DNA of 32,000 bases from assembly GCA_022843095.1 (NCBI GenBank), contig JALHOH010000001.1, positions 450,001-482,000 on the forward strand, read 5' to 3'. The notes beneath the pieces were generated by a model. It saw only the letters and a program-made list of their open reading frames with translations. It was not told the origin of the DNA and ran no database searches. This stretch comes from Candidatus Saccharimonadota bacterium. GTDB taxonomy: Bacteria > Patescibacteriota > Patescibacteriia > 2-12-FULL-60-25. Positions 11,263 to 32,000 of the stretch are shown piece by piece; the first letter of the stretch is position 1; every line of letters begins with the position of its first letter. The position numbers were made by a program, and so were the translations under genes.

Positions 11263-11271
11263 CGCCCAACT

Positions 11272-11811: not shown

Positions 11812-11822
11812 CCCACAACGCT

Positions 11823-12008: not shown

Positions 12009-12018
12009 CCTCCTACGT

Positions 12019-12411
12019 ATGATGACGGACCCAATCAGCGACTTTCTGACGCGCATCCGCAATGCGCTCGCCGCCCGCCACGATGTCGTGACGGCGCCGT
12101 CTTCGCGTCTCAAGCTCCAGATCGCCAAAATCTTGGCGGCCGAAGGGTTTTTGGCCGAAGTGCGCGAGGAAAAGGATGGCGCGAAATCCATGATCGTCGC
12201 GCAGCTTAAATATAACGGAAAGCAGCCGGTGATCCGCTCGATCACGCGCGTCTCCAAGCCGGGGAAGCGGGTGTATCGCGGGTCGCGTGAACTGCCGACC
12301 GTGCTCTCAAACCAAGGGATTGCCATCGTCTCCACGTCTGCGGGGGTGATGACGAACCGAGAGGCTCGCCGCCGCAAGTTGGGCGGGGAGGTCTTGTGTG
12401 AAGTCTTCTAA
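12019..12411 (+). CDS. rpsH: 30S ribosomal protein S8 (uS8)
   Basis: MTDPISDFLTRIRNA..A.H..V..P.S..K..IAKIL..EGF........SKPG.RVY......P.V.N..GIAIVSTS.GVMT..EAR....GGEVLC.V. The start may be 12019 or 12022 (MM). Confidence 0.95.
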   Translation: MMTDPISDFLTRIRNALAARHDVVTAPSSRLKLQIAKILAAEGFLAEVREEKDGAKSMIVAQLKYNGKQPVIRSITRVSKPGKRVYRGSRELPTVLSNQGIAIVSTSAGVMTNREARRRKLGGEVLCEVF

Positions 12412-12420
12412 CAAACGCCT

Positions 12421-12972
12421 ATGTCTCGTATTGGGAAAAAGCCGGTTCTCCTTGCCCAGGGCGTCGATGCCCAGGTGCAGGACAACCAGGTGATCGTGAA
12501 GGGACCGAAAGGAACCCTCACCGTGGCGTTGCCGCCGCTTACCACCGCCTCGGTGGTGGCGGATCCGCGGTCGGTGCAAATCGCCGTCGGGCATGAAGAT
12601 CGTGTGGAAGATCGCGCGCAGTGGGGGTTGGCTCGCCAGCTCGTGCAAAACGCGGTTGACGGGGTGCAGAAGCCGTTCGAAAAGCAGCTCGAATTCGTGG
12701 GGGTCGGCTACAAGGTCGCCCTTCAAGGACGCGATCTCGTGATGGACGTCGGCTACTCGCACCAAGTACCCTTCACCCTGCCGGAAGGCGTGGAAGCGAA
12801 GGTGGAAAAGCAGGTGGTGACCCTCGCCTCCGCGGATAAGCAGTTGGTCGGTGAAACGGCCGCGCGCATCCGCCGGATCCGCCCGCCGGAACCGTACAAG
12901 GGGAAGGGGATCAAATACGTGGATGAAGTCATTCGCCGCAAGGCCGGGAAGACGGCCAAGTCCGGCGCGTAA
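12421..12972 (+). CDS. rplF: 50S ribosomal protein L6 (uL6)
   Basis: MSRIGKKPV..........V..V.VKGPKG.L......L.F.GVGYK....G..L....GYSH.V.......V.......[18 protein letters not shown]. Confidence 0.95.
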
Positions 12973-12989
12973 TTCTTGCAGAAACGCCT

Positions 12990-13352
12990 ATGTCTAAGAC
13001 GACCATGCAAGCACGCGCTGCCCGCCGCCTCGCTCGGGTGCGCGCCAAGATTTCTGGAACGAGCGAACGCCCGCGTCTCGCCGTGTCTCGCAGTTTGAAA
13101 CACATTGCCGCGCAGTTGATTGACGACGTGGCAGGAAAGACCCTCGTGGCCGCGAACGATACGGAGATCGCGGACGCGGATCGCAAGGGAAAGAAGAAGG
13201 CGGAACTCGCGTTTTTGGTGGGGAAACTCATCGCGGAACGCGCGAAAGCCAAGGGAGTATCGACGGTCGTGTTTGACCGCCGCGATAAGCAATTTCATGG
13301 CCGCGTGAAAGCCGTCGCTGACGGCGCACGTGAAGCCGGACTGACGTTCTAG
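12990..13352 (+). CDS. rplR: 50S ribosomal protein L18 (uL18)
   Basis: R.R.KI.GT.ERPRLAV.RS.KHI.AQLIDD..G.TL.AA.......FDR....[17 protein letters not shown]. Confidence 0.93.
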
Positions 13353-13355
13353 CCT

Positions 13356-14036
13356 ATGTCCGACCAAGTACAAACGACGCCGACGCCGGCAGCACCGGCC
13401 GCACCGGCAGCACCAGCGACGTCCGCGCCTCAGGGCGGTCGTCCGATGGGTCGTCCGATGGGAGGGGGCCGTGGCCAGGGTGGCCGTGGCGGGTTTGGCG
13501 GAAATCGCGGAGGTCGCGGCGGCCAGGGTGGTCGCGGGGGCGACCGTCGCGGTCCGCGCCCGGACGTTCCGGCGGAAGCGGATTATGAAGAAAAGAATCT
13601 CGAGATCGCTCGCGTGACGCGTGTGACCAAGGGAGGGAAGCGCATGCGCTTCCGTGCTCTGACGGTCATCGGGAATCGCAAGGGGCGTGTCGGATTCGGG
13701 ATTGCGAAGGGGATCGACGTCGCGGGGGCGACGTCCAAAGCCACGACGCAGGCGCGCAAGGCGCTGCTCTCGGTTCCGTTGAAAGACGAAACCGTACCAC
13801 ACCAGGTGATCGCAAAGTTCGGTGCTTCGCGCGTGCTGCTGAAGCCCGCCCCGAAAGGGACCGGGATCAAGGCGGGGGGCGCGGTGCGCATCGTGCTTGA
13901 ACTCGCGGGTGTTCCAAACGTGGTGTCCAAGATTCTTGGATCCTCGAACAAGATCAATAACGTAAAAGCGACCTTTGCTGCGTTGCGCATGCTCCGCATG
14001 CCAGCGGCGAAGGAAGCGGATACGAAGACCTCCTAA
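13356..14036 (+). CDS. rpsE: 30S ribosomal protein S5 (uS5) with ~70-aa Pro/Ala then Arg/Gly-rich N-terminal extension
   Basis: The core is VTRVTKGGKRMRFRAL.V.GN..GRVGFG.AKG..V..A..KA...A.K........VPH.V...FG...V.L.PA..GTG..AGG..R.VLE.AG. The N-terminus carries GGGRGQGGRGGFGGNRGGRGGQGGRGG. Confidence 0.93.
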   Translation: MSDQVQTTPTPAAPAAPAAPATSAPQGGRPMGRPMGGGRGQGGRGGFGGNRGGRGGQGGRGGDRRGPRPDVPAEADYEEKNLEIARVTRVTKGGKRMRFRALTVIGNRKGRVGFGIAKGIDVAGATSKATTQARKALLSVPLKDETVPHQVIAKFGASRVLLKPAPKGTGIKAGGAVRIVLELAGVPNVVSKILGSSNKINNVKATFAALRMLRMPAAKEADTKTS

Positions 14037-14039
14037 CCT

Positions 14040-14474
14040 ATGTTGTCCATGCATGCGCTCGCCCCGGCAAAAGGGGCACGCACCAAATCGTTCCGCATCG
14101 GTCGCGGACTCGGTTCGGGTCGCGGCAAAACCGCGGGTCGCGGGACCAAGGGGCAGAAGTCCCGCTCCGGCGGCAGCAACAAGCTGGTCTTGAAGGGGTT
14201 GAAGCAGATGTTGCTCGCGTTCCCGAAGTCGCGCGGATTCCAGAGCCGCTTTGTGAAAGCGGCGACGGTGCCGGTTGCGAAGCTTGCGGCGTTTGAGGAC
14301 GGATCCAAGGTGGATTTGGCCACGCTGAAAGCCAAGGGATTGGTGCTTCGCACCGCCCTCTCTGCCAAGGTGATCGGCGGCGGAGAGCTCAAGAAGAAAA
14401 TGCACCTGAAGGGCATCGCCACGACGGCCGGCGCGAAAGCGCAGATCGAAGCGGCGGGCGGCTCGGTGAAATAA
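14040..14474 (+). CDS. rplO: 50S ribosomal protein L15 (uL15)
   Basis: L.PA.GA...S.R.GRG.GSG.GKT.GRG.KGQKSRSGG. It starts 3 nt after the rpsE TAA, so there is no room for rpmD. Confidence 0.93.
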   Translation: MLSMHALAPAKGARTKSFRIGRGLGSGRGKTAGRGTKGQKSRSGGSNKLVLKGLKQMLLAFPKSRGFQSRFVKAATVPVAKLAAFEDGSKVDLATLKAKGLVLRTALSAKVIGGGELKKKMHLKGIATTAGAKAQIEAAGGSVK

Positions 14475-14481
14475 TTCCTGA

Positions 14482-14510
14482 CAATGTACGCGCATGAGGC
14501 GCGTACATTG
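14482..14510 (+). promoter_or_regulatory. Very stable hairpin between rplO and secY (no U-tract)
   Basis: 12-bp perfect stem CAATGTACGCGC (14482-14493) / GCGCGTACATTG (14499-14510) with loop ATGAG. It buries the ORF-track ATG at 14484. Confidence 0.6.
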
Positions 14511-17720: not shown

Positions 17721-17755
17721 ACACCTCGATTCCATTGACCGGACGGGGTGTTTTT
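17721..17755 (+). terminator. Intrinsic terminator
   Basis: ACACCTCG (17721-17728) / CGGGGTGT (17744-17751) with one G-U pair and a 15-nt loop, then TTTT. Confidence 0.5.
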
Positions 17756-17798
17756 GATAGCGTCGCCCATACTCGGATGGACGAGTGGAGGTGAAGCC

Positions 17799-18647
17799 AT
17801 GGAAGAGTTTGAAACGCGGATTACGACCGCAAAAGGAGAGTTGTTCGGAGCCTTTCGCGCGATTGATGCCCGGAGGCGGGTCATCGTCAGCCGTGATCGC
17901 ATTTCGTACGAAGAGAAGGGGAAGGGAAGCGCGGTGCTTCCGCGCGGCACGTGTTTTGCGCTTACCACCTCGACGGTGGAAGGGCGACCCAAGCGGACGA
18001 TTTTGGACGATGGCCTCGTCCAGGCGTGGCGTCAGGCGCATCATGTGCGGGATGCGAATTTGCACAAAGCGGGTGTGATCGTGGAGTCAGCGGAACCGGC
18101 TCTGCAGCACAAAAAACAATCCCATGAGCAGATCGCGTCTGTGTATCAGGGACTGGCCAATGCGCTCTTGCTGCGTTTGCAGGCGATCGAGGAGGTGATC
18201 GTGCGGGCAGAGCAATGGTGCCTTCCTGGCGCGTCTACGATCGATCCAGCCATGCTCGTGCGGGATCTTGAGGTGATCTGGGAGCGACCGTATGTCGAGC
18301 GTGCGATGGCACTTGCGGGAGCGATTCGTGAATCGGGCGCCTCGACGCCCGGCGCGCTCGTGGAGGTGCGGTCGCTGCGTCTCATCCACATGCTTTCGAT
18401 GGACCTTCTGTCGCCCGTCGCGTTCGCGCTGACGGAAGCGGATGAAGAATCTAAAGGCGTCGATACCTGTTGGGCACGCGTCGCGGAGGGAAGGAAGGCG
18501 GTGATTCATCTCCTGAAGCAAGGGACGTTCCACCGTGATCGGGAGATCCGAGACGCGCTCGCGGCACAGCCCCCGATCATCAAGGCGAAGCAGGCGAAGG
18601 TACTGAAACACACGACGGAGCAGGTGATTCGGTTCCTTGCGGGTTGA
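17799..18647 (+). CDS. Hypothetical protein (282 aa)
   Basis: GGAGG (17787-17791) lies 7 nt upstream of ATG 17799; the ORF-track start 17748 has no RBS. TGA 18645-18647 is followed by a terminator. No family recognised. Confidence 0.6.
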   Translation: MEEFETRITTAKGELFGAFRAIDARRRVIVSRDRISYEEKGKGSAVLPRGTCFALTTSTVEGRPKRTILDDGLVQAWRQAHHVRDANLHKAGVIVESAEPALQHKKQSHEQIASVYQGLANALLLRLQAIEEVIVRAEQWCLPGASTIDPAMLVRDLEVIWERPYVERAMALAGAIRESGASTPGALVEVRSLRLIHMLSMDLLSPVAFALTEADEESKGVDTCWARVAEGRKAVIHLLKQGTFHRDREIRDALAAQPPIIKAKQAKVLKHTTEQVIRFLAG

Positions 18648-19683: not shown

Positions 19684-19792
19684 GAGACCTCCAGGGTATC
19701 AATCGTTGCAGGAATTCCGAAACGTTTCAAGGCTCCTCGTGGATTGGACATATCCACAAGTCTCTGGAGGATCTGCGAGAAAGAATGGAGTG

Positions 19793-19801
19793 TGCTATAC
19801 T
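19793..19801 (+). promoter_or_regulatory. Extended -10 promoter element
   Basis: TGcTATACT lies ~30 nt upstream of ATG 19833. Confidence 0.4.
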
Positions 19802-19832
19802 GTCATCATCACTCACATGCGATCAGTACTTT

Positions 19833-20318
19833 ATGTCGAATCTTCCCTCTAAGCGACGTCCGGTGCGCCGACGTTCTGTTGCAGAAACAGAACCCGCAAC
19901 AGATGCTTCGACGCCCATCCCAACGGGACCGGGATCATCGGGCGATGCCTCTTGCGGACACGGAAAATGCTATGGTCCGCAATGTTCTGTTCGGTACGTC
20001 GGACCCACATCGCACTTGCGCGACCACCATGCGATGCATGCCTCCCGTGGGATGACGCATGTCTGGATGGCGGCAATCGTGACCGGTACGGCGCTTGTGT
20101 TAACCGGAGCGCTCGCATTCACCTCGGTGCAGGCAAAAGATGTTCAGCGTCAAGCGCGGCAAGAGCTCATGCAAAAGCAGGATTGGGGAAAGGTGACGCA
20201 ACGATTAGAAGCAATGGAAAAAGCGATGCGCGACATCCGTGAATTGTGTGCAAAGGCAGGCTCTATGCCAACGCCGCGCCCACTTCCACCGTCCTCAACT
20301 TCCACCAACGCACAATAA
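19833..20318 (+). CDS. Hypothetical single-pass membrane protein with Cys/His cluster
   Basis: Start chosen at ATG 19833 (TTATG) downstream of the extended -10; the ORF-track start 19785 would lie upstream of it. Basic N-terminus, CGHGKCYGPQC cluster, TM VWMAAIVTGTALVLTGALAF, coiled-coil-like C-terminal part. Confidence 0.5.
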   Translation: MSNLPSKRRPVRRRSVAETEPATDASTPIPTGPGSSGDASCGHGKCYGPQCSVRYVGPTSHLRDHHAMHASRGMTHVWMAAIVTGTALVLTGALAFTSVQAKDVQRQARQELMQKQDWGKVTQRLEAMEKAMRDIRELCAKAGSMPTPRPLPPSSTSTNAQ

Positions 20319-20511: not shown

Positions 20512-21699
20512 TTAGAGACCTGTAATTTGCGTAAACCGTACCCGATAAAACAGATCGCGTACCCAGGGGGCGATGCGGGTTTTCCATTGAAAGAACTTCA
20601 TATCAAGATACCCCGTCGTCCCATACGACAGCAGGTTTCCGCGCGAAACATAGCGAAACGGTTTTAACGGTAGGTTCTGTGCTTCGCGTACGATATTGTT
20701 TGCGATGGTCGCACTCATCATCATGGCGGTTTGCGCATTCTTTGGGATCACTACATTCCGTTCCCGGTACAATGCGCAATCACCTGCGGCAAAAACGCCG
20801 GGTTCGATGCGAAGGGATTGATCCACGGAAAGACAGCCGGATTTATCCACGGCATAGGGCGGGATGGCTTCGATCCGACGGGGAAGAATCCCGGCGCACC
20901 AGATGACGAGATGCGAGTTGATGCGTGTGCCTTTGGAGGTTAACAAAAACCCATCACCCAATTTAGCCGCTGCATCACCCAAGTGTGCTGTGATCCCTTG
21001 GTGAGCCAGTTCGTCCATGGTGCCGTTCACGAGGTTTGGGGGAAAGCCGGGGAGGATTTGCGGAGCGGCTTGCACAAGATGGAGACGAGGTGCATGAATC
21101 AGTGCGGGTGCGGATTTTGCGAGCGCACGTTCGAGATAGCCTTTGATGGCAAATAGCGCTTCCAATCCGGATGGACCTCCGCCGACGACGGCGACCGTGA
21201 GAAGCGCTTCCGCTGATTCTGGGGTTTGTATCGCGGCTGCGATCAGTTCGTTTGCACGCGCATGGATCTGTTCGACATGCGCAACGGATTTTAATGGGAA
21301 GGCAAACGTATCGGTGCCAGGAACGCCAAAAAAATTCGTCTCTGATCCGGACGCAAGGACAAGTGCGTCATAGGGAACGGGGGTCAGGGTTTCTTCCTGC
21401 GGTTCCTGAACAAACACAATTTTGCGAGCTCGATCCACGCTCAAGGTGTGGCCTTGGACGTAGGTAAAACCATCGCGTGCGGCGATCTGTTTGAGCGGGG
21501 CGACGACGTGGGTCGCATCCGGTCGTGCGAGTAGGTCGATCAAGCGCGGAGAAAACTGAAATACGTCTTTTTCATCAATGAGCGTGACGGCGTGCGTATG
21601 GCGAAGGCGTGCGGCGAGTGTACGTGCCGTCGGGAGCCCGACAAATCCGGCTCCGACAATGACAATACGTTGCGGTTGCATGTCCTGGTTGTACCACAT
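20512..21699 (-). CDS. ndh: Type II NADH dehydrogenase-like FAD-dependent pyridine nucleotide-disulfide oxidoreductase
   Basis: Two dinucleotide-binding motifs (RIVIVGAGFVGL and VAVVGGGPSGLE) plus the C-terminal AAGDCA motif. 395 aa. The alternative start is Met7 (21681). Confidence 0.82.
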   Translation of the reverse strand: MWYNQDMQPQRIVIVGAGFVGLPTARTLAARLRHTHAVTLIDEKDVFQFSPRLIDLLARPDATHVVAPLKQIAARDGFTYVQGHTLSVDRARKIVFVQEPQEETLTPVPYDALVLASGSETNFFGVPGTDTFAFPLKSVAHVEQIHARANELIAAAIQTPESAEALLTVAVVGGGPSGLEALFAIKGYLERALAKSAPALIHAPRLHLVQAAPQILPGFPPNLVNGTMDELAHQGITAHLGDAAAKLGDGFLLTSKGTRINSHLVIWCAGILPRRIEAIPPYAVDKSGCLSVDQSLRIEPGVFAAGDCALYRERNVVIPKNAQTAMMMSATIANNIVREAQNLPLKPFRYVSRGNLLSYGTTGYLDMKFFQWKTRIAPWVRDLFYRVRFTQITGL

Positions 21700-21710: not shown

Positions 21711-22532
21711 GTGCCTACGGAATCGACAAAAAAGCCACGTGTTGCCGTGATTACCGTGACCTATAACCTCTTGCGTGACGGATGCGTCGCGTCGGTTCGA
21801 CGTGCCGTTGAATCCTGTGAAGCGGGTGCTTGTTATGTTGTGGGGGATAATGGATCAACGGTATTTCGCGCAGACGAGGCGGTGAAAACAGTGATGCCGG
21901 ACGCGCGGGTGTTTTTGCGTGGCCGCAATATAGGATTTGGGGGTGGGAATAACTTTGCGGCAATGCATGTCGAGGCGGACTATTATTTTTTCTTGAATCC
22001 AGATACGGAGCTCACGGATCCTGGAACGCTGGATGCGTTGGTCGCGTTTATGGATGCGCATCCGGATGTCGGGATCGTCGGGCCAAAACAGGTGTATCCG
22101 GACGGTCGATTGCAAGAGACGTGTCGCGCATTTCCGGCGTGGTATATGCCGTTTATCCAACGAACCCCGCTTGGAAAGACCGCCTTCGGGAAACGATATC
22201 TCCAGCGGTTTTTGATGAGTGACTACGATCATGCGACGGTTGCCGACGTGGATTGGGTGCAGGGATCGGCGCTTTTTGTGCGTGCGGACATCTGGAAAAA
22301 AATCGGCGGATTCGATGAACGATTTTTTATGTACTTTGAAGACACGGATGTCTGCCGGCGAGCAAAAAAGGTAGGCGCGCGCGTCGTGTATCTTCCGGAC
22401 ATTGTGCTTACGCATGCCCACGAACGCGCAAGTGCCAAAAAGAGCCCGCTTGCGGGGCTCTTATTCTCCAAAACGGCGCGCTACCATTTTGTGAGTTGGC
22501 TCAAATATCTTTGGAAGTGGAAGGGGAGATAG
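21711..22532 (+). CDS. Family 2 glycosyltransferase (WbbL/rhamnosyltransferase-like)
   Basis: VAVITVTYN, DNGS, N.GFGGGNN, LNPDT, GSALFVRA.....GGFDE.FFMYFED.D.CRR. GTG start. Confidence 0.82.
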   Translation: MPTESTKKPRVAVITVTYNLLRDGCVASVRRAVESCEAGACYVVGDNGSTVFRADEAVKTVMPDARVFLRGRNIGFGGGNNFAAMHVEADYYFFLNPDTELTDPGTLDALVAFMDAHPDVGIVGPKQVYPDGRLQETCRAFPAWYMPFIQRTPLGKTAFGKRYLQRFLMSDYDHATVADVDWVQGSALFVRADIWKKIGGFDERFFMYFEDTDVCRRAKKVGARVVYLPDIVLTHAHERASAKKSPLAGLLFSKTARYHFVSWLKYLWKWKGR

Positions 22533-24128
22533 CTAGCAGGTAATCCCGTATTTTTTGGCGAAGTGATCATTCGCGTGCTGCAAGCTTTGGAACGTCCCCG
22601 CGTCAGACCAGAACCCGTCTACCGGACGCGCGACCAGTTTTCCTTGCGCGAGATACGCGTTGTTCACGTCCACGATCTCCAGTTCACCGCGTGCGGACGG
22701 TTTGAGCGTTTTGATGATGTCGAATACGCCCGATTCGTACACATACAACCCGACCTGCGCCAAATTGGATTTTGGCTGCTTTGGTTTTTCTTCAATCGAG
22801 AGGACGCGTCCAGACGATTCGATTTCCATTACGCCAAAACGATGTGCGTCCGGAACGGCTTTGTAGAAGGCGAGCGCACCTCCCTGGAACGATTGAATCT
22901 GGTCGCGGAAGGTATCTTCAAACAAGTTGTCGCCAAGAATCACGGTGACGTGATCATCGCCAACGAAATCTTTGGCGTAGGCGATCGCATGAGGTAGGCC
23001 ACCGGCCACGTCTTGGATGCGGTAGGTGAGTTCACACCCGTAGGCGGCACCAGAGCCAAGGAGATTCATGAAGTGTCCGGCATAATCCGGACCGGTGACG
23101 ATCATGATGTCGCGAATCCCTGCATCCAAAAGCGTTTGCAAGGGGTACAAGATCATCTGCTTGTTGGCGACCGGAAGCAGGTGCTTGTTGGTAATGTGGG
23201 TGAGCGGTGCGAGACGTGTGCCTTTGCCCCCGGCAAGAATGACCCCTTTCATTTTGCGTGTAGGTGTTGTCGCTGCAACGGGAGACGTGGCGGCTGTTCG
23301 TTTGGCGGCGGCGTATTTTTGCATCGTGTCGCGCAGAGCCACATCGATCGGACGCATCGTGATCCCGAGCGCGGCTAACCGATCGCTTTTCATCACGTTG
23401 TTGGAGCGCTTGCGCACGGCAAGGCCCTGCTTCACCAAATCCTGTTCCGTGATCCATTCGCAGGTGTGCGTTGGATCAACGTATTCGCGATAGAGCGCCA
23501 GCAAATCACGATGACGCATCGTGCCAGGGTTCACCACGTGGTACACGCCGGTCGCGCGCTTTTGCAGCAATTGGTACACGACAGCGATGAGATCTTCCAG
23601 GATTGTGACGCTGTTTTCCACGTCGATGATTTTGGGATAGCGCACCAATTTATCGATCAGGTTTTTGGGGGACGGGATATGATCGATCGGCATGCGGAAC
23701 CGCGCGATGCCGACGTTTGGCAACCGTGAAAGCACGAGGTCAGCCGCGTATTTTGTTCGCGTATAAAAGGCCTCTGGATTGCCAAAGTCTTCCTCTGTCC
23801 ACCCGCCTGGGGTGGGGGAGGCGCCATAAAAAATACAGCCAGATCCCAGGTGAAGGAGATAGACGTTTTTTTCCTGACAGGCCTCGGCAAGCACAAGCGC
23901 GCCCGTGACATTCGAGCGGAATGTTTCTACCTGATGCGTTTCGCACCAGTCGACGTTCGGCGTGCCCGCTTTCCCGGCGGCGTTTACAACCACGTCCGGC
24001 TGGACGCGTGTGAGCTCTTCCAGGACGGCGGCTTTGTCTTCGATGCGTACCGAAGAGAGGACCGCATCAGGCCACGAAGCGGCCATGCGCGATCCCACAT
24101 ACCCCTTTCCAAACACCAAAATCTTCAT
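22533..24128 (-). CDS. Fusion protein: NRS/ER-like (RmlD-superfamily) 4-keto-6-deoxyhexose epimerase/reductase domain plus glucose-1-phosphate thymidylyltransferase (RmlA-like) domain
   Basis: Residues 1-275 read MKILVFGKGYVG..., NAAGKAGTPNVDWCETH, GSGCIFYG, FYTRTK, FRMPI, RSNN. An Ala/Thr/Pro linker covers 276-292. Residues 293-531 read MKGVILAGGKGTRL.PLT....K.LLPV..K.MI.YPL..L...GI.DI.IV, ILGDN (junction Met at 23252-23250). Confidence 0.85.
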   Translation of the reverse strand: MKILVFGKGYVGSRMAASWPDAVLSSVRIEDKAAVLEELTRVQPDVVVNAAGKAGTPNVDWCETHQVETFRSNVTGALVLAEACQEKNVYLLHLGSGCIFYGASPTPGGWTEEDFGNPEAFYTRTKYAADLVLSRLPNVGIARFRMPIDHIPSPKNLIDKLVRYPKIIDVENSVTILEDLIAVVYQLLQKRATGVYHVVNPGTMRHRDLLALYREYVDPTHTCEWITEQDLVKQGLAVRKRSNNVMKSDRLAALGITMRPIDVALRDTMQKYAAAKRTAATSPVAATTPTRKMKGVILAGGKGTRLAPLTHITNKHLLPVANKQMILYPLQTLLDAGIRDIMIVTGPDYAGHFMNLLGSGAAYGCELTYRIQDVAGGLPHAIAYAKDFVGDDHVTVILGDNLFEDTFRDQIQSFQGGALAFYKAVPDAHRFGVMEIESSGRVLSIEEKPKQPKSNLAQVGLYVYESGVFDIIKTLKPSARGELEIVDVNNAYLAQGKLVARPVDGFWSDAGTFQSLQHANDHFAKKYGITC

Positions 24129-24167
24129 AGATGATTGCGTCAGCGTGCGTGTTTTTAGAGGAAAAAT

Positions 24168-25142
24168 CTAATCGATTGTCAAGGGGAGCCACCAAGATGG
24201 ATGTTCCTGATACCAACGTACGGTATCGGCTAGCCCCTCCTCAAAGGTGTAGATGCGCGTCCACCCAAGCTCTGTCTGCGCCTTCGTGTCATCGATTGCG
24301 TACCGCCGGTCATGACCTTTCCGGTCTTCTACGAAGGTAAGTAGCGACTCCGGTTTGTTTAAGAGAGCGAGGATACGTCTCGCCACGTCCACGTTGCTCG
24401 GCTCAACATTTCCCCCAAAGAGATAGGTTTCACCTTCTTTTCCACGCAGCAATACCGCTTCAATGCCGCGCACATGATCCAGAACGTGGATCCAATCGCG
24501 GACATATTTGCCATCACCGTAGATCGGGAGTGGTTTATCGCGTAACGCATTCGTGATCAGGCGAGGAATGAACTTTTCCGGGAAATGGTAGGGGCCGTAA
24601 TTGTTCGAGCAATTACTGATAGTGATTGGCAGCCCGTACGTTTCTCGGTAGGCGCGCACCAGATGATCAGAAGCGGCTTTTGAGGCGGAATAAGGGCTCC
24701 GCGGGGCGTACTTGGTGTCCTCAGTAAAGCGGTTTGCGTCTTCCAGGGTGAGAGCGCCAAACACTTCATCCGTCGAAATGTGGTGGAATCGCTTGATCTG
24801 ATCGCCACGTCGGCGCATCTCTTCAAGTAGGGTGTGCGTACCCAGCACGTTTGTTTCGAGGAATACGCGAGGCCCGGTGATGGATCGGTCAACGTGTGAT
24901 TCTGCAGCGAAATGGACGATCGTCTGGACGCCTTCCATCGCATCATGGACCGCCGTTTCGTCGCAGATATTGCCGTGGACGAATCGGTATCGGGTTTGGT
25001 CAATCCCTTCCAAGTTTTCTGGCCGTCCCGCATAGGTCAGTGCATCCAGGTTGGTGATGCGATCTTCCGGGTACGCCGAAAGCCAGTACCGGATGAAATT
25101 TGATCCGATAAATCCACATCCACCGGTGACGAGGAGATGCAT
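24168..25142 (-). CDS. rfbB: dTDP-glucose 4,6-dehydratase
   Basis: MHLLVTGGCGFIGSNF, HFAAESHVDRS, STDEV(F)G, YSASKAASDHLVRAY, DGKYVRDW.HV.DH. 324 aa, start in CTATG context. Confidence 0.95.
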   Translation of the reverse strand: MHLLVTGGCGFIGSNFIRYWLSAYPEDRITNLDALTYAGRPENLEGIDQTRYRFVHGNICDETAVHDAMEGVQTIVHFAAESHVDRSITGPRVFLETNVLGTHTLLEEMRRRGDQIKRFHHISTDEVFGALTLEDANRFTEDTKYAPRSPYSASKAASDHLVRAYRETYGLPITISNCSNNYGPYHFPEKFIPRLITNALRDKPLPIYGDGKYVRDWIHVLDHVRGIEAVLLRGKEGETYLFGGNVEPSNVDVARRILALLNKPESLLTFVEDRKGHDRRYAIDDTKAQTELGWTRIYTFEEGLADTVRWYQEHPSWWLPLTID

Positions 25143-25205
25143 AGACAGGCGCGTTGATCGTTGTTACGGTGGAACCATAACAAGCCCCAGAAAATGGGGC
25201 AATGT

Positions 25206-26090
25206 ATGGCAATCACCTGGCTCACGACCCCCGATCCGGCCACCGCAGACCTTGCGGTGGTGATTGTGTCGTGGAATGTCCGGGAACGCGTGCTCGAAAA
25301 CCTGGCGGCCTTGAAGCAAAGTCGAGGGGATTTGCGGGTACGTGTCGTGCTCGTTGATAACGCCTCCTCCGATGGAACCGTCGAACGCGTGCGGGCGGAA
25401 CATCCATGGGTACGGGTGATCGCGAATCCGGAGAATGCAGGCTTTGCGCGTGGAAATTTACAGGGCGTGCTGGCGGCCCCGGCGCGTCATGTCTTGCTTT
25501 TGAATCCGGACATGCGCGTGGAAGACGACACCTGTGCGCGGATCGTCTCGGCTTTGGACGCTCGTCCAGAGGTCGCCGTCGTCAGCGGTTTGCTTCGGAA
25601 GGGCGATGGAACCGTGGTTCCCTCGGTTCGTCGTTTTCCAACGCTCGCGTCGCAATTGGTCGTACTGCTCAAGCTTGGCAAGCTGTTTCCGGCACTCCTG
25701 CGTACCTATCATGCCGAAGACGTGGATTTAACGGTCGAACAATGCGTCGATTCCGTCCGTGGATCGCTGTTTGGGATGAATCGCACCGCGCTCGAGCGCA
25801 TCGGGTTTTTGGATACGCGGTATTTTTTGTGGTTTGAAGAGGTGGATTATTGCCGCCGTGCGCACGCTGCCGGGATGCGTGTGTTGCATCTCCCGACGAT
25901 TCAGGCGACCGATTTGGTCGGACAGAGCTTTGCGCAGCGTCCTACGTTTTGGAAACAGCGCCAATTCGCCACATCCATGACCACGTATTTTTCGACGTGG
26001 CATCCTGGGGTTCCGGCCTGGGTCATTCGGATCGTGAGCGCACTTGTCCTTGCGCCGCAGTGGGTGATCGATCGACTATGGCGCACGTAG
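25206..26090 (+). CDS. Family 2 glycosyltransferase (WbbL-like)
   Basis: LAVVIVSWN, DNASSDGT, N.GFARGN, LNPD, GS.F...R.....GF.D..YF.WFEEVDYC.R. The start is uncertain (ATG 25206 in GTATG context, alternatives 25194 or 25161). Confidence 0.8.
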   Translation: MAITWLTTPDPATADLAVVIVSWNVRERVLENLAALKQSRGDLRVRVVLVDNASSDGTVERVRAEHPWVRVIANPENAGFARGNLQGVLAAPARHVLLLNPDMRVEDDTCARIVSALDARPEVAVVSGLLRKGDGTVVPSVRRFPTLASQLVVLLKLGKLFPALLRTYHAEDVDLTVEQCVDSVRGSLFGMNRTALERIGFLDTRYFLWFEEVDYCRRAHAAGMRVLHLPTIQATDLVGQSFAQRPTFWKQRQFATSMTTYFSTWHPGVPAWVIRIVSALVLAPQWVIDRLWRT

Positions 26091-28225
26091 CGATTCAGGT
26101 GGTGACCTATTTTGGCTCCGGAGATTTACCGGCGCTGCTTGCGTCCCTTGCGCGTCAAACGCATACGGATTGGCATCTGTACGTGCATGAGAATTCCTGC
26201 GATGCGTCGGAATCCGCGCGCATCGGGGCGCTGCTCGCTGCCTCGGGTGTGCGGTATACCCTGACGGTTGCAGATGAAAACGAGGGATTTTCTGCACACA
26301 ATCGGTTGTGGCGTGCCCAGGATGCGCCGTTCGTGTTGGTCTTGAATCAAGATGCGGCGTTGGATCCGCGTTACTTGGAAGAGGCACTTGCGGCCGTTCA
26401 GCAGGGGGATCGGATCGCGGCCGTGGCAGGACGGGTGTTGCGGTGGGATGGCGGGGCATTTCCGGATGCGGCACAAGGTATCATCGATACGGCAGGTCTT
26501 GAGTATCAACAGTTTTCTCAGATTCGCGATCGGTTTGCCGGACAGGTGATCCCATCCCTTGCGCCTACGCCGGTATTTGGCGTGTCTGGTGCCGTGGCGT
26601 TGTATCGCCGCCACGCGGTCGAAACGGTCGCGGTGGAGCCGGGGGAGCTCTTTGTGCCCGGGTTTTTTATGTACCGGGAAGACGTGGAGCTTGCGATCCG
26701 CCTGCAACGTGCCGGTTTTGTGACGCAGTTTGTTCCTTCGGCGATCGCGTATCATCGCCGCGCGCTTCGTGAAGAAGGGGCGACGGGTTGGGCGCGGATC
26801 CGTGCAGAGCGGCGGAGATCGTCCCGTGTTCGGATGGCATCGTATCGGAATGCCTGGTGGCTTGTGGTGCTGCACGCGTCGTCTGCGTTGCCGTGGTCTG
26901 ATCGTCTCCGATCCGTTTTTCAGGAATGGTTGCGCGGGATGATGGTGTGCGCCGCCTCGCCCACGGTGTTTGCGCGCGCGTGGTTTTCGGGGATGCGCGG
27001 AACCGTTCGCATGTGGAAGCGTCGTCGTGCCATGAACCGACGGTTTCCTCCATTCGCCGGGTATCGCGCGTCCGAACCGCTTCCCGCATGGCCTGCGGAG
27101 AAACGCTGGCCAAAGGTGGGAATCATTTATTTGACGTATCCAACCGCAAACGGCCAACGCGACATTGACCGCTGTCTTGCCTCGCTTCAGAGCCTCGACT
27201 ATCCAAAAGATCGTGTCGAATTGATTTGCGTGGAATCAAAAGGGAAATTGCCCCCGATCAAGCCCTGGTTTGAGCAGACCTGGATGCCGAAATCCGGCAC
27301 GACCCTGCCGCGTATCCATTATATTTTTCGTGACGAATGGATTGGGTTTTCAGGGAACAATAATTTGGGTTTAGAAAAAGCGCAGGAGCTTGGATGCGAC
27401 TACGTTCATTTGACCAACGAGGACACGGATGTAGATCCGGCCTATCTCCGGACCGCGGTCATGCGCGCAGAGTCGGATCCTACCATCGGGATCGTGCAAT
27501 CGTTGCTTCTGCTTGGAGAAAAACGCGCACAGGTGAATTCGCTTGGGAATGCGTATCATGTGTTGGGACATGGGTATTCTGCGGGGTATTTGTGGACGGT
27601 GGATCAGGCGGAGGGATGGATTGCGCAGACCCGGGTTACGAATCCATCGCTGCAGATTCCCTATGCATCCGGTGCGGCGATGTTGGTGCGCATCGCGTCG
27701 CTTGAAGGTAAAGCCTTGTTCGATGAGAAGTTCTTTTCGTACCACGAGGACACGGATATTGCGCTGCGTTTGAGAATGCGCGGATGGAAAACGGTGCTTG
27801 AGCCCACCTCGCGTATTTGGCACTACTACGAATTCGCAAAGAGCAAGATCAATTATTACTACATGGAACGCAATCGGTACGTGCTCCCGCTGACCTATTA
27901 CCGCTTGCCGACCTTGATCCTACTCGCCCCATTGTTCGTAGCATTGGACATTGCGACCCTTGTTTTCTCGGTACGCGGAGGGTGGGCAGATATGAAAGGG
28001 AGGGTCTACCGAGACTTTGCAAGTAAGGATTTTTGGTCCTGGATTTGGTCGCGCCGCAAAGAAGCGCAACGCCTACGGACCATCTCCGACCGAGCGTTTT
28101 TGCGCCTTGCGACCGCGGAGATTGCCTTCCAGCAGGATGGCGTCAAAAACCCGGTGCTGACCTATCTGGGCAACCCACTTATGCGAATCTGGTGGCGGTC
28201 GTTGCGTGCCGTGATGTGGTGGTAG
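26078..28225 (+). CDS. Tandem double-GT2 glycosyltransferase with hydrophobic C-terminal region
   Basis: Domain 1 reads VAIQVVTYF..., [36 protein letters not shown]. Domain 2 reads VGIIYLTYP..., [37 protein letters not shown]-like segments follow ([21 protein letters not shown]). ATG 26078 (GACTATG) overlaps the upstream gene by 13 nt. The first 76 codons of the ORF-track model are an out-of-frame overlap. Confidence 0.8.
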
Positions 28226-28676: not shown

Positions 28677-29744
28677 ATGTCCACCCTTCTTGATCAGGCG
28701 AAGCAAGCAATCCAAGCGCTCCGTGAAGCCGAGGCGACTGTGTCCGCACCGGAGGTGTTGGCGGACCCGAAAAAATTAAAGGAGGCGTCCATTGCATTTA
28801 CGCATGCCAAAGAAGTGGCGGATGCGGCGGAGGCGTTGCTTGCGGCAGAGCGGACCTATGCGGATGCAAAAGAGGCGATCGCGTCGGATGATCCGGACAT
28901 GCGTGAATTGGGTACCGCGGAATTGGCAAAGATTGAGCCTGTGCTTCCGGGTGTGCGCGAGGCGTTTGAGATCGCGCTTGTCCCGCCGGATCCGCACGAT
29001 CAAAACGACATCGTCATGGAAATCCGCGCAGGCGCCGGAGGGGATGAGGCCGGCATTTTTGCAGGGGATTTGCTGCGTATGTATTTGCGATACGCGGAGC
29101 GTCGGGGGTGGAAGGCGACGCTTGTGACCGAATCGCGGAACGACCAGGGAGGATACAAGGAAGTCGTCGTGGCGATGCAGGGAGCCGGAGCGTATGGTGC
29201 GCTGAAGTATGAATCCGGTGTCCACCGCGTTCAGCGTGTGCCAGTGACGGAAAAACAGGGGCGCATCCATACCTCGACTGCGACCGTTGCTGTGTTGCCA
29301 GAGATCGAGGAGGAAGAAATTCGGATTGATGCAAAAGATCTGCGCATCGACACGTTTTGCGCCGGGGGAAAAGGGGGGCAATCCGTGAACACGACGTATT
29401 CTGCTGTGCGTATCACGCACCTGCCGACCGGCATTGTAGTCAACTGCCAAGATGAACGTTCGCAGCAGCAAAATCGTGAACGCGCCATGATGATCTTGCG
29501 TGCGCGTATTTGGGAGGCAGAGCAGGCAAAAAAACAGGCGGAATTGGAAGCAACGCGTCGCTCGCAGATTGGATCCGGGGATCGCTCGGAGAAGATCAAG
29601 ACCTATAATTACCCGCAAGATCGCATCACGGATCATCGCATCAAAAAGTCCTGGCACGGCATTCCGACAATCATGGATGGGGGATTGGATCCGCTGATTA
29701 CCGCCGTCAAAACCGGAAAGGTGGGAGACGAAGACGAAGAATAA
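28677..29744 (+). CDS. prfA: Peptide chain release factor 1
   Basis: PVT tripeptide ([14 protein letters not shown]), GGQ motif (GGKGGQSVN) and YNYPQ.R.TDHR. Start chosen at ATG 28677 (MSTLLDQ...), giving 355 aa. Confidence 0.92.
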
Positions 29745-29747
29745 CGC

Positions 29748-30437
29748 ATGCATGGTATGGATGTCGTGATCATGGCTGCCGGCAAGGGGACGCGTTTGCG
29801 CCCGTTGACCGACACGACGCCAAAGCCCCTCGTTCCCATCCACGGCCGCGGGACGTTGTTGCGATTGTTGGATGTGTTGCCCGAAGAAATTGATCGTATC
29901 ATTGTGGTGGTTGGGTATTTGCAGGAGCAGATTCGTACGGCGCTTGGGGCGTCTTGGAATGGGAAGCCGGTGGTTTACGTTGAACAGACCACGTTGAATG
30001 GGACGGGAGGCGCGCTCCGGGCGGCGGAGTCGGTGATCGTGAGCGATCGGTTTTTGGTGATCAACGGGGATGATGTATATGCCGCGGAAGATTTGCAGGC
30101 GCTTGTTCGTTGCCATCGGGGATTGATCGCCGCGAAACAGGTACTCCCGCGTCCTCTGGATACGTGGGAAGTGCGAGATGGCGCCGCGTTACGCATGACC
30201 AAGGCGGTGCCAACGGGTGCGGAAGGGTGGGTCAATACGGGGGCCTATCTCCTGGGAAAAGACTGGTTTTTGACAACGCCGGTTTTGACCCCAGGAAAAA
30301 CAGATGAGTACAGCTTGCCGCACGCGCTTCCCGAACTCATGGCGAACACGCGTTTCGAGGTCATTCCGGCAACGCGGTGGATGATGTGTGGCACCCCAGA
30401 AGAATTGGCGGCGTGTACCCGAGCGTTGGCATCGTAA
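29748..30437 (+). CDS. Sugar-1-phosphate nucleotidyltransferase family protein
   Basis: VIMAAGKGTRLRPLTD..PKPLVP..G is the NTP_transferase signature, followed by NGTGGAL and INGDD. 229 aa, starting 3 nt after the prfA TAA. Confidence 0.8.
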   Translation: MHGMDVVIMAAGKGTRLRPLTDTTPKPLVPIHGRGTLLRLLDVLPEEIDRIIVVVGYLQEQIRTALGASWNGKPVVYVEQTTLNGTGGALRAAESVIVSDRFLVINGDDVYAAEDLQALVRCHRGLIAAKQVLPRPLDTWEVRDGAALRMTKAVPTGAEGWVNTGAYLLGKDWFLTTPVLTPGKTDEYSLPHALPELMANTRFEVIPATRWMMCGTPEELAACTRALAS

Positions 30438-30503
30438 TTGACGAAGCCTGCATGCAGTGGCTACGGTGCTTCTGCGCAGGTTTTTGCGTATTGGAGGATG
30501 GTG

Positions 30504-31577
30504 ATGAAAACCAGGGGATGGGGAGTGTGTGTGTTGGGTGTGATCTCTATCGGATGTTCGCTTGGGCATCCGGGTCCGAGCGCGCGCTTTTTGCCGGATG
30601 CATCCGATGACCGTCGCGCCGATACATCGGTGATCCAGGATGCTGCGCCGGAAACGGCGTTGGATATCCTGCCGAGCCAGGAAGTGGTCATGTCTCGCCC
30701 CGATGAAGGGGGAGAGGTGTCGGACGGCATGCTCGACGCGTGGGATGGGGGAGATGCGCTGGATGACCCCATCGTCGCGGAAGATGCAGGAATGATCGAG
30801 CCGGATGTCGTGCCGGATCAGGCGCCGCCGGACGAAGCGCTGCCGGATGTGTTGATTGCGCCGATGGATGTGGCAGATATTTCGGACGTCTTCATGATGG
30901 ACCAGGGTCCGGAACCGGTTCCGGATGTGATCGTCATGGATCTGGTGGATCGACCGGATGTCCCGGATCAGATGATGGTGCCGGATCGAGTGGCGCCACC
31001 GGATGTTCCGCCTCCGCCTGATGTGCGGCCACCTCTGGATATCCAGCCTCCACCAGATGTCCAACCTCCACCGGACATTCAGCCACCCCCAGATATCCAG
31101 CCGCCCCCTGACGTACAGGTGCCGATGGATGTCGTGCCGGATGAACCTCCGCCCGACGTCCCGCCCCCGCTCGTCACGGCTCCCATCGTGGTCGAGTACG
31201 CCCATGTCGATCCGCGCTATCCGGGTCGTGATGTTCCATCCTTCGCCGACTACTGGTGGCGGGTGGAATACACGATGCCTGTGGTACGAGTCGAAGACTG
31301 GCGTCGTGGAAGGTGCATGGGAGGGATCGTCATGATCTCTGCCACCACCTCTCGCTGTACGCTGGATGTGCCCGTTCCAGATGGAACGACCATCAAGTTC
31401 TATCCCGTCTTCGGCGGAGACGTTCCGGTCTGCCCGCGCGGTGCTTCGTGCCCCGTGGGCTACATGGAACGCTACACTGTTCGCTACGGGATGCGTTCCT
31501 ACGACAACCGACGGTTGACGCTCGACTTCGAGTTCGTCCCGACGGAACGGCAGTTCGTGTTCTTGCGGGTGCCGTAG
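30504..31577 (+). CDS. Predicted lipoprotein with acidic Pro/Asp-rich repeat region and Cys-containing C-terminal domain
   Basis: GGAGG (30493-30497) lies 6 nt upstream of ATG 30504. The signal peptide MKTRGWGVCVLGVISIGC has a lipobox-like ISIGC. A long (V/I)PD-rich stretch precedes a ~130-aa C-terminal domain. Confidence 0.65.
   Translation: MKTRGWGVCVLGVISIGCSLGHPGPSARFLPDASDDRRADTSVIQDAAPETALDILPSQEVVMSRPDEGGEVSDGMLDAWDGGDALDDPIVAEDAGMIEPDVVPDQAPPDEALPDVLIAPMDVADISDVFMMDQGPEPVPDVIVMDLVDRPDVPDQMMVPDRVAPPDVPPPPDVRPPLDIQPPPDVQPPPDIQPPPDIQPPPDVQVPMDVVPDEPPPDVPPPLVTAPIVVEYAHVDPRYPGRDVPSFADYWWRVEYTMPVVRVEDWRRGRCMGGIVMISATTSRCTLDVPVPDGTTIKFYPVFGGDVPVCPRGASCPVGYMERYTVRYGMRSYDNRRLTLDFEFVPTERQFVFLRVP
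31011..31118 (+). repeat. Six tandem in-frame 18-bp units encoding PPPD(V/I)(R/Q)
   Basis: The units start at 31011, 31029, 31047, 31065, 31083 and 31101. They encode PPPDVR, PPLDIQ, PPPDVQ, PPPDIQ, PPPDIQ and PPPDVQ, and every unit uses different synonymous codons. Confidence 0.9.
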
Positions 31578-31586
31578 CCAAACCAC

Positions 31587-31615
31587 CCCCGCCCGGGTTC
31601 TCTGGGCGGGGTTTT
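31587..31615 (+). terminator. Intrinsic terminator
   Basis: CCCCGCCC (31587-31594) / GGGCGGGG (31604-31611), followed by TTTT. Confidence 0.65.
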
Positions 31616-31651
31616 GCGTTGCAAAGAATCGGCGCGGTATCATGGTCGTAT

Positions 31652-32000
31652 ATGCCACAACGCGCAACGGCGCAGCAACACGGATTCTTGCTTGGCAAAA
31701 CCATTTTTCGCGGCGCAAATCAAAAACAAATTGAACGGCGTATTTTTGGAATGGATCAAAAAAAATTGACCGGCGCGCTGCAAAAACGGGGATTAGAAAA
31801 AGTGTCCACAAAAGAGGTGGTGGATGTGCTAACCGGAAAATCGCGCACGGGACTAAAAGCGCGGGACATGGCTCGGGTGGTGCAGGCGTTCCAGGATTTG
31901 GGCGTGGCTACCGATCGCGAGGGGGCGAGTACCTTGGTGATGCGCGCAGGTAGAACGGCACAGGGAATGGAGAATGGTGTGACGCTAAAGGACACATTGA
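31652..32000 (+). CDS. Hypothetical protein, N-terminal 116 codons (runs off the window)
   Basis: The frame is open from ATG 31652 (TATATG context) to the window end with no stop: MPQRATAQQHGFLLGKTIFRGANQKQIERRIFGMDQKKLTGALQKRGLEKV.... It is not in the ORF track because it is unterminated. It is more A/T-rich than its neighbours. Confidence 0.4.
   Translation, partial: MPQRATAQQHGFLLGKTIFRGANQKQIERRIFGMDQKKLTGALQKRGLEKVSTKEVVDVLTGKSRTGLKARDMARVVQAFQDLGVATDREGASTLVMRAGRTAQGMENGVTLKDTL

Follow-up and report, generated by a model that had tools for sequence, protein, structure and literature searches.

The 32,000-nucleotide stretch of contig JALHOH010000001.1 analysed here in its entirety (the window) encodes, at positions 22533-24128 of its minus strand, a protein in which a predicted 3,5-epimerase/4-reductase (ER) domain of the NRS/ER type is fused to a short-form RmlA, a predicted glucose-1-phosphate thymidylyltransferase. 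Together with a separately encoded RmlB, this ER-RmlA fusion probably constitutes a three-enzyme route to a nucleoside diphosphate (NDP)-activated L-rhamnose, most likely deoxythymidine diphosphate (dTDP)-L-rhamnose, which would dispense with RmlC and in which the fusion would contribute the first and the last step. This reading is favored because the N-terminal domain is nearest, by sequence as well as by fold, to two characterized bifunctional enzymes, NRS/ER of Arabidopsis and L780 of Mimivirus, and because its residues Cys98, Tyr122, Lys126, and Lys160 map onto Cys108, Tyr136, Lys140, and Lys175 of L780. It is further favored because RmlC is absent from all loci examined, where RmlB, ER, and RmlA cluster and fuse, and because the RmlA domain closely resembles a short RfbA and RmlB passes its equivalog cutoff.

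Architecture and catalytic residues of the fusion protein

The features of the fusion gene and of the adjacent RmlB gene are the following, ORF denoting open reading frame, SDR short-chain dehydrogenase/reductase, and pLDDT the predicted local distance difference test score.

22533-24128, minus strand: entire ER-RmlA fusion gene, 531 amino acids plus stop (ORF listing and Pfam)
23298-24128, minus strand: predicted NRS/ER-type 3,5-epimerase/4-reductase domain, residues 1-277 (phmmer, AlphaFold2, Foldseek)
24093-24110, minus strand: Gly-rich dinucleotide-binding motif G7-x-G9-x-x-G12 (FGKGYVGS), codons verified
23835-23837, minus strand: codon of Cys98, predicted epimerization acid/base, aligned to L780 Cys108 and Arabidopsis NRS/ER Cys115
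23751-23765, minus strand: SDR reductase dyad Tyr122-x3-Lys126 (FYTRTK), aligned to L780 Tyr136/Lys140
23649-23651, minus strand: codon of Lys160, second predicted epimerization residue, aligned to L780 Lys175 and Arabidopsis NRS/ER Lys183
23253-23297, minus strand: Ala/Thr/Pro-rich interdomain linker, residues 278-292, coinciding with a pLDDT dip
22536-23252, minus strand: predicted short-form RmlA domain, residues 293-531 (PF00483, 191 bits)
24168-25142, minus strand: predicted RmlB, dTDP-glucose 4,6-dehydratase, 324 amino acids (TIGR01181, 471 bits, cutoff of 365 passed)

The initial annotation had described a single polypeptide whose N-terminal 275 or so amino acids are NRS/ER-like rather than RmlD-like and are joined by an Ala/Thr/Pro linker to a complete short RmlA-like domain opening at an internal methionine at 23252; each of these statements agrees with the results. 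One ORF runs uninterrupted from an ATG at 24128-24126 to a stop at 22535-22533 on the minus strand, and in the encoded protein Pfam assigns residues 1-270 to RmlD_sub_bind (72.8 bits) and residues 294-524 to NTP_transferase (191 bits), which corresponds to a three-part layout of SDR domain (residues 1-277), linker, and short RmlA (residues 293-531). A protein in NCBI, P0001, located on a 683,555-bp contig, is 100% identical to it. The internal methionine is residue 293 (codon 23252-23250), the conserved first residue of the RmlA-like domain; a convincing Shine-Dalgarno motif was found neither before it nor before the start of the ORF. The linker, AAKRTAATSPVAATTPTRK (about residues 278-292), has the composition described, and residues 282-287 are the sole segment with a pLDDT below 50 in the full-length AlphaFold model, which was built with 64 homologues (mean pLDDT 92.7, predicted template modelling score, pTM, 0.57). 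In 105 homologues the junction stretch (residues 269-293, including the linker) measures 21-66 amino acids, is not conserved in sequence, and is shortest in the protein of the window. According to the model, both domains are well folded and have no defined mutual orientation, because the pTM is just 0.57, so that the linker would act as a flexible, nonconserved tether imposing no fixed interdomain geometry.

In a phmmer search of residues 1-277 against all PDB sequences, Arabidopsis NRS/ER (4QQR) scored 189 bits (E 8.5e-55) and Mimivirus L780 (7JID) 125 bits, while the best classical RmlD (1KBZ) reached 33 bits. The NCBIfam RmlD equivalog TIGR01214 scored 75.8 bits, its cutoff of 224.05 not being reached. 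The match to NRS/ER lies far beyond chance, as is evident from its E-value, and the same applies to the RmlA half with E=1.2e-71. All five motif pairings given in the initial annotation are contained in the alignment to 4QQR, namely (query/4QQR) NAAGKAGTPNVDWCETH/NAAGVTGRPNVDWCESH, GSGCIFYG/ATGCIFEY, FYTRTK/FYSKTK, FRMPI/VRMPI, and RSNN/RSNN. Since a Foldseek search with the full-length model returned overwhelmingly RmlA entries, the N-domain was modelled separately with AlphaFold2 (pLDDT 97.5, pTM 0.94). With this model, 7JID was retrieved first (E 1e-27, template modelling (TM) score 0.91) and 4QQR second (E 2.5e-24, TM 0.84), and the RmlD structures ranked behind both of them (E 1e-18 to 1e-16, 17-21% identity). 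By sequence, predicted fold, and catalytic residues, the N-domain is of the NRS/ER/L780 type and not a classical RmlD.

The catalytic assignment follows that of L780 as given in a Chem Rev review, according to which Cys108 and Lys175 are key catalytic residues confirmed by mutagenesis (PMC9614988). Among 105 two-domain homologues, the counterpart of Cys98 is conserved in 101, those of Tyr122 and Lys126 in 104 each, and that of Lys160 in all; Cys98 is also invariant in a 48-sequence family alignment, and the full C-Y-K-K set is found in 136 of 149 representatives of the wider family. For the dinucleotide-binding motif, G7 and G9 are kept in 98/98 ungapped sequences from the same 105 and G12 in 91/98. 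Classical RmlD of Salmonella (1KBZ) has Tyr at the Cys position and Thr at the Lys position. The sole RmlC-fused representative among those compared, the 492-amino acid JGI metagenome protein P0270, carries an N-terminal RmlC domain (PF00908, 164 bits) ahead of an NRS/ER-like domain that has Gly at the position of the epimerase Cys and Arg at that of the reductase Lys. This protein is probably of the RmlC-NRS/ER type known from Rhizaria (PMC6556577). The Gly is as expected if the SDR domain needs the Cys only when it epimerizes by itself.

For the C-domain, the search of PDB sequences returned the short RfbA of Bacillus anthracis (3HL3/4ECM, 245 amino acids) with 244 bits (E=1.2e-71), full-length RmlA proteins with about 200-214 bits, and UDP-glucose pyrophosphorylases with 50-75 bits. 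Superposition of the modelled domain on 4ECM gave a TM score of 0.92 and a root-mean-square deviation of 1.2 Å at 50% identity, and the rmlA_long profile scored 210 bits, below its cutoff of 320.25. Judged by these comparisons, the domain is short-form RmlA-like and not a canonical full-length RfbA. The motif GGxGTRLxPLT (residues 300-310) and Gln372 are invariant in 64 fusions. Gln372 aligns to Gln83 of S. enterica RmlA (1IIM), the base-selecting residue that is specific for pyrimidines and that was mutated in the purine-accepting variants Q83S and Q83D.

Proposed route to activated L-rhamnose and its alternatives

The pathway would be initiated by the C-terminal short RmlA (residues 293-531), joining glucose-1-phosphate and dTTP, possibly UTP as well, to yield dTDP-glucose, which would be converted by the separately encoded upstream RmlB into dTDP-4-keto-6-deoxy-glucose. 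The N-domain (residues 1-277) would then perform in one active site the work of RmlC and RmlD of usual bacteria, with Cys98 and Lys160 serving as acid/base pair for epimerization at C3 and C5, and Tyr122 and Lys126 together with NAD(P)H reducing C4 to give dTDP-β-L-rhamnose. Finally, the flanking family 2 glycosyltransferases (GT2) would presumably consume this product in the assembly of a cell-surface glycan containing rhamnose. A dTDP-based role for the NRS/ER family is plausible because L780 accepts both the uridine diphosphate (UDP) and the dTDP form of 4-keto-6-deoxyglucose (PMC9614988).

No RmlC (PF00908) was found by Pfam in the scanned ORFs of the window. In the six-frame ORFs of the window and of 89 related loci (90 sources, 1.42 Mb), a Salmonella RmlC and the RmlC domain of P0270, confirmed by Pfam, gave no match even at E<=10; as a positive control, these two queries retrieve one another at E 1e-34. 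RmlB and RmlA are nearly always adjacent in these loci without RmlC, and the RmlB-ER-RmlA single polypeptides hold no RmlC domain. Domain identities, conserved residues, gene neighborhood, recurrence of the fusion, and lack of RmlC at the examined loci are observations; the enzymatic functions, the carrier nucleotide, the sugar formed and its stereochemistry, its use by the GT2 enzymes, and the genome-wide absence of RmlC are inferences.

Several points weigh against this route. Epimerase activity and L-rhamnose as product are deduced by homology at 31-36% identity to the characterized enzymes, and the Cys is missing in 4/105 fusion homologues. The characterized NRS/ER and L780 enzymes prefer or accept UDP-sugars (PMC9614988), and the product of the gene at 29748-30437 could supply UDP-sugars, which keeps a UDP-based pathway under consideration. 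The RmlA domain scores 237.2 bits with TIGR01207, matching profile positions 1-235 of 286, and remains below the equivalog cutoff of 360.65 because the C-terminal ~50 residues are absent. The search for RmlC covered ±10 kb around each relative gene and the 32-kb window. Matches of the GT2 proteins encoded at 21711-22532 and 25161-26090 to the rhamnosyltransferase family TIGR01556 are weak (37 and 40.6 bits, respectively, with a cutoff of 200).

Among the alternatives, a UDP-based pathway as in plants and giant viruses, by which UDP-glucose would be made and UDP-L-rhamnose would be the final product, survives best; it is a subvariant of the proposed route, not its contradiction, and is considered unlikely rather than remote. 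It is in line with the UDP-L-rhamnose made by the characterized members of the family, with the higher efficiency of L780 with the UDP-sugar (PMC9614988), with the recognition of both uracil and thymine by the residue corresponding to the base-selecting Gln372 (PDB entries of RmlA with UDP-glucose), and with the RmlCD of P. parvum, which makes both nucleotide forms (PMC6556577). On the other hand, RmlA models and structures score 237-244 bits with the C-domain versus 72-120 bits for GalU/UDP-glucose pyrophosphorylases, and RmlB exceeds the equivalog cutoff for dTDP-glucose 4,6-dehydratases (471 versus 365 bits).

Slightly less credit is given to a reductase-only function, already named in the initial annotation as the alternative of a plain 4-reductase. 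The N-domain would then be a divergent RmlD analogue with 4-ketoreductase activity alone, RmlC would be encoded elsewhere in the genome, and the fusion would join steps 1 and 4 of an ordinary four-enzyme pathway. Such a function would be compatible with the weak RmlD similarity in Pfam (72.8 bits) and NCBIfam (75.8 bits), with the confinement of the RmlC search to loci, and with the existence of RmlC-(NRS/ER-like) fusions (P0270; Rhizaria, PMC6556577), according to which the scaffold can work beside RmlC. It is disfavored by the almost perfect conservation of the epimerase Cys/Lys pair, of which the RmlC-fused P0270 has lost the Cys and RmlD lacks both residues, by the lack of RmlC at the examined loci in spite of nearly always adjacent RmlB and RmlA, and by the triple fusions, which would comprise every activity but that of RmlC.

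A product other than L-rhamnose, such as 6-deoxy-L-talose or a mono-epimerized 6-deoxyhexose, is improbable. The sequence does not reveal with which stereochemistry C4 is reduced or how far epimerization proceeds, identity to the characterized enzymes is just 31-36%, and the giant-virus relative Mg535 performs C3 epimerization and reduction only (PMC9614988). However, the closest characterized members (Arabidopsis NRS/ER, the C-domain of RHM, and L780) make L-rhamnose, both epimerase residues are present, and the only affinity of two flanking GT2 proteins to a family named for a sugar, albeit weak, is to the rhamnosyltransferase subfamily.

That the fusion results from an assembly, frameshift, or gene-calling artefact merging two separate genes, as might be suspected from the many relatives with a standalone ER gene followed by a separate RmlA gene (51/87 ER genes are standalone), can be dismissed as ruled out, given the unbroken reading frame in the window, the same architecture in many independent homologues (105 two-domain and 15 three-domain proteins among the 120 best clusters, from independent NCBI, JGI, ENA, and Logan assemblies, with linkers of varying length that are always in frame), and the distinct short form of the fused RmlA compared with the ~360-amino acid long forms of the unfused neighbors.

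Gene neighborhood, fusion states, and distribution

RmlB is located directly upstream of ER-RmlA in the same frame, and the gap at 24129-24170 consists of a TAG codon (24170-24168) and 13 sense codons. In the nearest relatives of the window locus, L007, L008, and L014 (71-77% identity), all three enzymes are fused, with a Pro/Ala/Thr/Ser linker of 35-45 amino acids at this position, and in L015 there is a single in-frame stop as well. As deduced from these sequences, fusion and fission of RmlB and ER-RmlA would lie one mutation apart at the window locus; the shared frame as such is weak evidence because it has a one-in-three chance of occurring. Fusion of the 4,6-dehydratase to the N-terminus of ER is found in P0056, P0032, P0113, and P0109 and not in the window, where RmlB is a separate ORF.

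The 120 best homologue clusters comprise 105 with the two-domain architecture of the window protein (57-72% identity) and 15 of proteins with 877-930 amino acids, whose domains follow one another as RmlB-ER-RmlA, just as the genes do in the window. All activities predicted for the conversion of glucose-1-phosphate into NDP-rhamnose would reside in one chain in these triple fusions, the first two domains of which have the architecture of plant RHM.

Triple-fusion proteins: P0032, P0056, P0068, P0075, P0077, P0084, P0085, P0091, P0095, P0103, P0105, P0106, P0109, P0111, P0113
Triple-fusion loci: L005, L007, L008, L014, L049, L053, L084

The named sources of the fusion homologues are Candidatus Uhrbacteria, Magasanikbacteria, and "Patescibacteria group", and in databases they bear unspecific names ("sugar nucleotide-binding protein", "glucose-1-phosphate thymidylyltransferase"). 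Far from being rare, the fusion is the usual state of these genes in many metagenome-assembled genomes (MAGs) of Uhrbacteria and Patescibacteria. Labels reading "uncultured Gammaproteobacteria" were treated as unreliable, since CAZMOB010000001.1 (L005/L031) shows synteny of the Uhrbacteria type.

Whether separate, doubly, or triply fused, RmlB, ER, and RmlA are grouped, mostly in that order. Among 87 ER genes, 51 are standalone, 25 are ER-RmlA and 9 RmlB-ER-RmlA fusions, one is cut by a contig end, and one is reversed; the latter (L036, Polyangiaceae, 1980-4070) is a stop-free fusion of a long-form RmlA to ER, in the order opposite to that of the window. Standalone ER genes usually have RmlB immediately upstream and a long-form RmlA of ~360 amino acids close by. 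In the distant standalone ER clades, most members of which lack a taxon label, the only named carriers are Daviesbacteria, where an overlapping RmlA-RmlB-ER operon is followed by GT2 and PMT glycosyltransferases; some metagenome proteins of these clades are labelled "3,5-epimerase/4-reductase" by JGI. In MAGs of Polyangiaceae, Labilithrix, and Myxococcales (L034, L036, L040, L046, L056, L060, L063, L064, L068, L077), the genes follow the order RmlB-RmlA-ER, and RmlC is missing from their surroundings.

A pattern scan of species-representative genomes returned at least 599 stretches, at least 588 of which encode an ER relative; the best 80 of these at least 588 belong to Patescibacteria and about ten Myxococcota MAGs (Polyangiaceae, Labilithrix; GC 0.61-0.72; 61-66% identity). 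Identities of 61-66% between the ER genes of Myxococcota and Patescibacteria suggest either horizontal transfer across widely separated phyla or an ancient origin. When 1.84 billion cluster representatives were searched exhaustively, 301 clusters were obtained at E<=1e-30, mostly of 270-300 amino acids, and also proteins of RHM length (650-760 amino acids), so that the fused domains are situated inside a large family of mostly standalone proteins of ~280 amino acids. One such homologue, P0285 (292 amino acids), is encoded at 4930-5808 of L087, a 99,910-bp contig (JGI 3300062126) that resembles a large phage genome, having many small same-strand ORFs and encoding Thy1, a DNA methylase, DUF3310, and an AAA ATPase; in 50,697 GenBank phage records, no homologue of P0285 was found.

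In 97/100 bootstraps of a neighbor-joining (NJ) tree with RmlD as the root, the fused domains group tightly in a clade without eukaryotic sequences, and in 100/100 they are excluded from the clade of Arabidopsis NRS/ER and L780. The description "plant/giant-virus-like" in the initial annotation is therefore appropriate in the sense of a common family and not in that of a recent import, transfer from plants or giant viruses in recent times being rejected on this bootstrapped tree. The NJ trees were computed from distances and have one partial RmlD as the only outgroup, so that their deep branching order should not be overread. On the ER-domain tree, the ER-RmlA fusions make up a contiguous grade, and triple fusions occur at two or more places; judging from this tree, bacteria seem to have generated the RmlB/ER/RmlA fusions themselves, on two or more occasions.

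The other genes next to the fusion gene, together with a nucleotidylyltransferase gene further downstream on the plus strand, are the following.

20512-21699, minus strand: Pyr_redox_2 FAD/NAD(P) oxidoreductase, 395 amino acids (Pfam)
21711-22532, plus strand: GT2 glycosyltransferase, 273 amino acids (Pfam GT2 families), convergent with the fusion gene and abutting it
25161-26090, plus strand: GT2 glycosyltransferase, 309 amino acids (PF00535, 58.7 bits), divergent from RmlB
26078-28225, plus strand: double-GT2 glycosyltransferase, about 715 amino acids from the likely start (two GT2 stretches in Pfam)
29748-30437, plus strand: short sugar-1-phosphate nucleotidylyltransferase, 229 amino acids, just past the release-factor gene

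The plus-strand GT2 gene at 21711-22532 and the stop of ER-RmlA at 22535-22533 on the minus strand touch at 22532/22533; there are zero intergenic bases and thus no room for a terminator between them. For the double-GT2 protein, the maximal ORF begins at 25850. A PDB sequence search for relatives of the flanking GT2 proteins, the double-GT2 protein included, found none; with 37-41 bits versus a cutoff of 200 and without a PDB relative, these neighbors are not claimed to be rhamnosyltransferases. The order of L31, release factor, three GT2 genes, RmlB, ER-RmlA, and Pyr_redox_2 is repeated across Uhrbacteria MAGs, the relatives having the three-GT2 block at the position of the GT2 genes at 25161-28225 of the window. 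Pyr_redox_2 is conserved directly downstream of ER-RmlA or of the triple fusion in the Uhrbacteria relatives L003/L004/L005/L006; in the window, the GT2 gene at 21711-22532 intervenes. The product of the gene at 29748-30437 is nearest to archaeal UDP-sugar pyrophosphorylases of the GlmU N-domain and AglF types (135 and 111 bits, both below cutoff).

The rest of the window encodes EF-G, EF-Tu, ribosomal proteins, SecY, Adk, Map, L31, a release factor, and the FAD oxidoreductase. Long stop-free ORFs without a Pfam match are present on the minus strand at 7100-10660, 10855-11751, 12753-14495, 28776-30116, and 30189-31811, with up to 1186 amino acids. Those within 7100-14495 are antisense to the ribosomal-protein operon (L2, L22, S3, L5, L6, and S5 confirmed on the plus strand) and were for this reason rejected as a hidden RmlC; those at 28776-31811 overlap plus-strand genes, including those of the release factor and the nucleotidyltransferase. 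They are most likely shadow ORFs due to codon bias in a genome of 57% GC, although 1186 amino acids over several genes is unusually long. ORFs of 177-299 amino acids without a Pfam family are found at 707-1408 and 1461-2024 on the minus strand, and at 2042-2668, 17748-18647, and 19785-20318 on the plus strand.

Significance and comparison with known systems

Activation of L-rhamnose is commonly divided into the "bacterial" RmlABCD pathway and the RHM or NRS/ER pathway of plants, fungi, algae, and viruses (PMC6556577; PMC9614988; bioRxiv 10.1101/854612). A phylogenomic study of 2011 listed four bacterial homologues of the ER domain only, all from Verrucomicrobia, left the origin open, and proposed that other prokaryotic carriers are "largely extinct" (PMC3220709). 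Genomic papers on the candidate phyla radiation (CPR) give dTDP-rhamnose synthesis at module level only (M00793), and one freshwater-CPR supplement contains no rfbC/K01790 data. In the searchable open-access literature, no description of the fusion, or of an RmlC-free bacterial rhamnose route, was found, in accordance with the impression of the initial annotation that a fusion of the first and last pathway steps is unfamiliar from described bacterial rml loci. Novelty lies in the architecture, in its occurrence in bacteria, in the size of the family, and in the existence of double, triple, and reversed fusions; both domain families and their chemistry are known.

The ER type is common in bacteria (at least 588 matches in species-representative genomes), in an RmlB-ER-RmlA operon with no RmlC nearby. 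It is conceivable, on a tentative view, that NRS/ER is an old and abundant bacterial enzyme of Patescibacteria, Myxococcota, and others, which would have been the source for eukaryotes and giant viruses and would represent the "largely extinct" ancestor (PMC3220709). The RmlB-ER-RmlA operon might then have collapsed repeatedly into double and triple fusions, the latter being single-polypeptide synthases leading from glucose-1-phosphate to NDP-L-rhamnose, prokaryotic counterparts of RHM, possibly with channelling or feedback from the last to the first step. If the predicted activity of the ER domain were confirmed, completeness calls for dTDP-rhamnose in genome-reduced Patescibacteria would need correction, since KEGG-style rules relying on rfbC and rfbD could mis-score them; compact one- or two-protein catalysts for NDP-rhamnose would become available; the origin of the eukaryotic and giant-virus enzymes would become directly testable; and the premise of drug-target arguments that all rhamnose-making bacteria possess RmlC and RmlD would have to be qualified.

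In comparison with classical RmlD (Salmonella 1KBZ, GacA 4WPG), the N-domain shares the extended-SDR fold (TM about 0.8), the Tyr-x3-Lys dyad, and the assignment to the last pathway step, and differs by an identity of only 17-21% and a score of at most 33 bits; classical RmlD possesses Tyr/Thr in place of the epimerase Cys/Lys and needs a separate cupin-fold RmlC. To Arabidopsis NRS/ER (UER1; 4QQR) and the C-domain of plant RHM1-3, it is related as a member of the same SDR subfamily (189 bits, TM 0.84), with the motifs NAAG.xG.PNVDWCE.H, GCIF, FYxxTK, RMPI, and RSNN, the same Cys/Lys and Tyr/Lys set, and presumably a single active site for 3,5-epimerization and 4-reduction without RmlC. Identity to Arabidopsis NRS/ER, however, is about 34-36% in the structural alignment, and the bacterial fused domains form a separate clade; furthermore, the fusion partner in NRS/ER and RHM is a dehydratase or none, in the window it is a nucleotidyltransferase, and the likely carrier is dTDP instead of UDP. 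Mimivirus L780 (7JID) is the top structural match, with its mutagenesis-proven C108/K175 aligned to C98/K160, yet is a standalone viral protein of 289 amino acids with 31% identity. The short RfbA of B. anthracis (3HL3/4ECM) equally lacks the C-terminal ~50 residues of the 290-amino acid RmlA; unlike the C-domain of the fusion, it stands alone and is encoded in a classical rfbABCD context.

Known rml fusions likewise join enzymes of NDP-rhamnose synthesis, including those of nonconsecutive steps (RmlA-RmlC). A genome survey of 2019 lists RmlC-RmlD, RmlA-RmlC, RmlA-RmlB, and Ugd-Uger fusions and no ER-RmlA (bioRxiv 10.1101/854612), and RmlC-RmlD is known from bacteria and Prymnesium and RmlC-NRS/ER from Rhizaria (PMC6556577); in none of the fusions listed in either source is an NRS/ER-type domain linked to RmlA. 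Fusions with RmlC retain the separate epimerase, with which the protein of the window is predicted to dispense. The closest parallel to plant RHM, in which a UDP-glucose 4,6-dehydratase is fused to ER, is provided by P0056, P0032, L007, L008, and L014, where RmlB and ER are arranged in one chain in the same order. In contrast to RHM, these bacterial triple fusions add a C-terminal RmlA and would thereby span the pathway from glucose-1-phosphate to NDP-rhamnose, while in the window RmlB is encoded separately.

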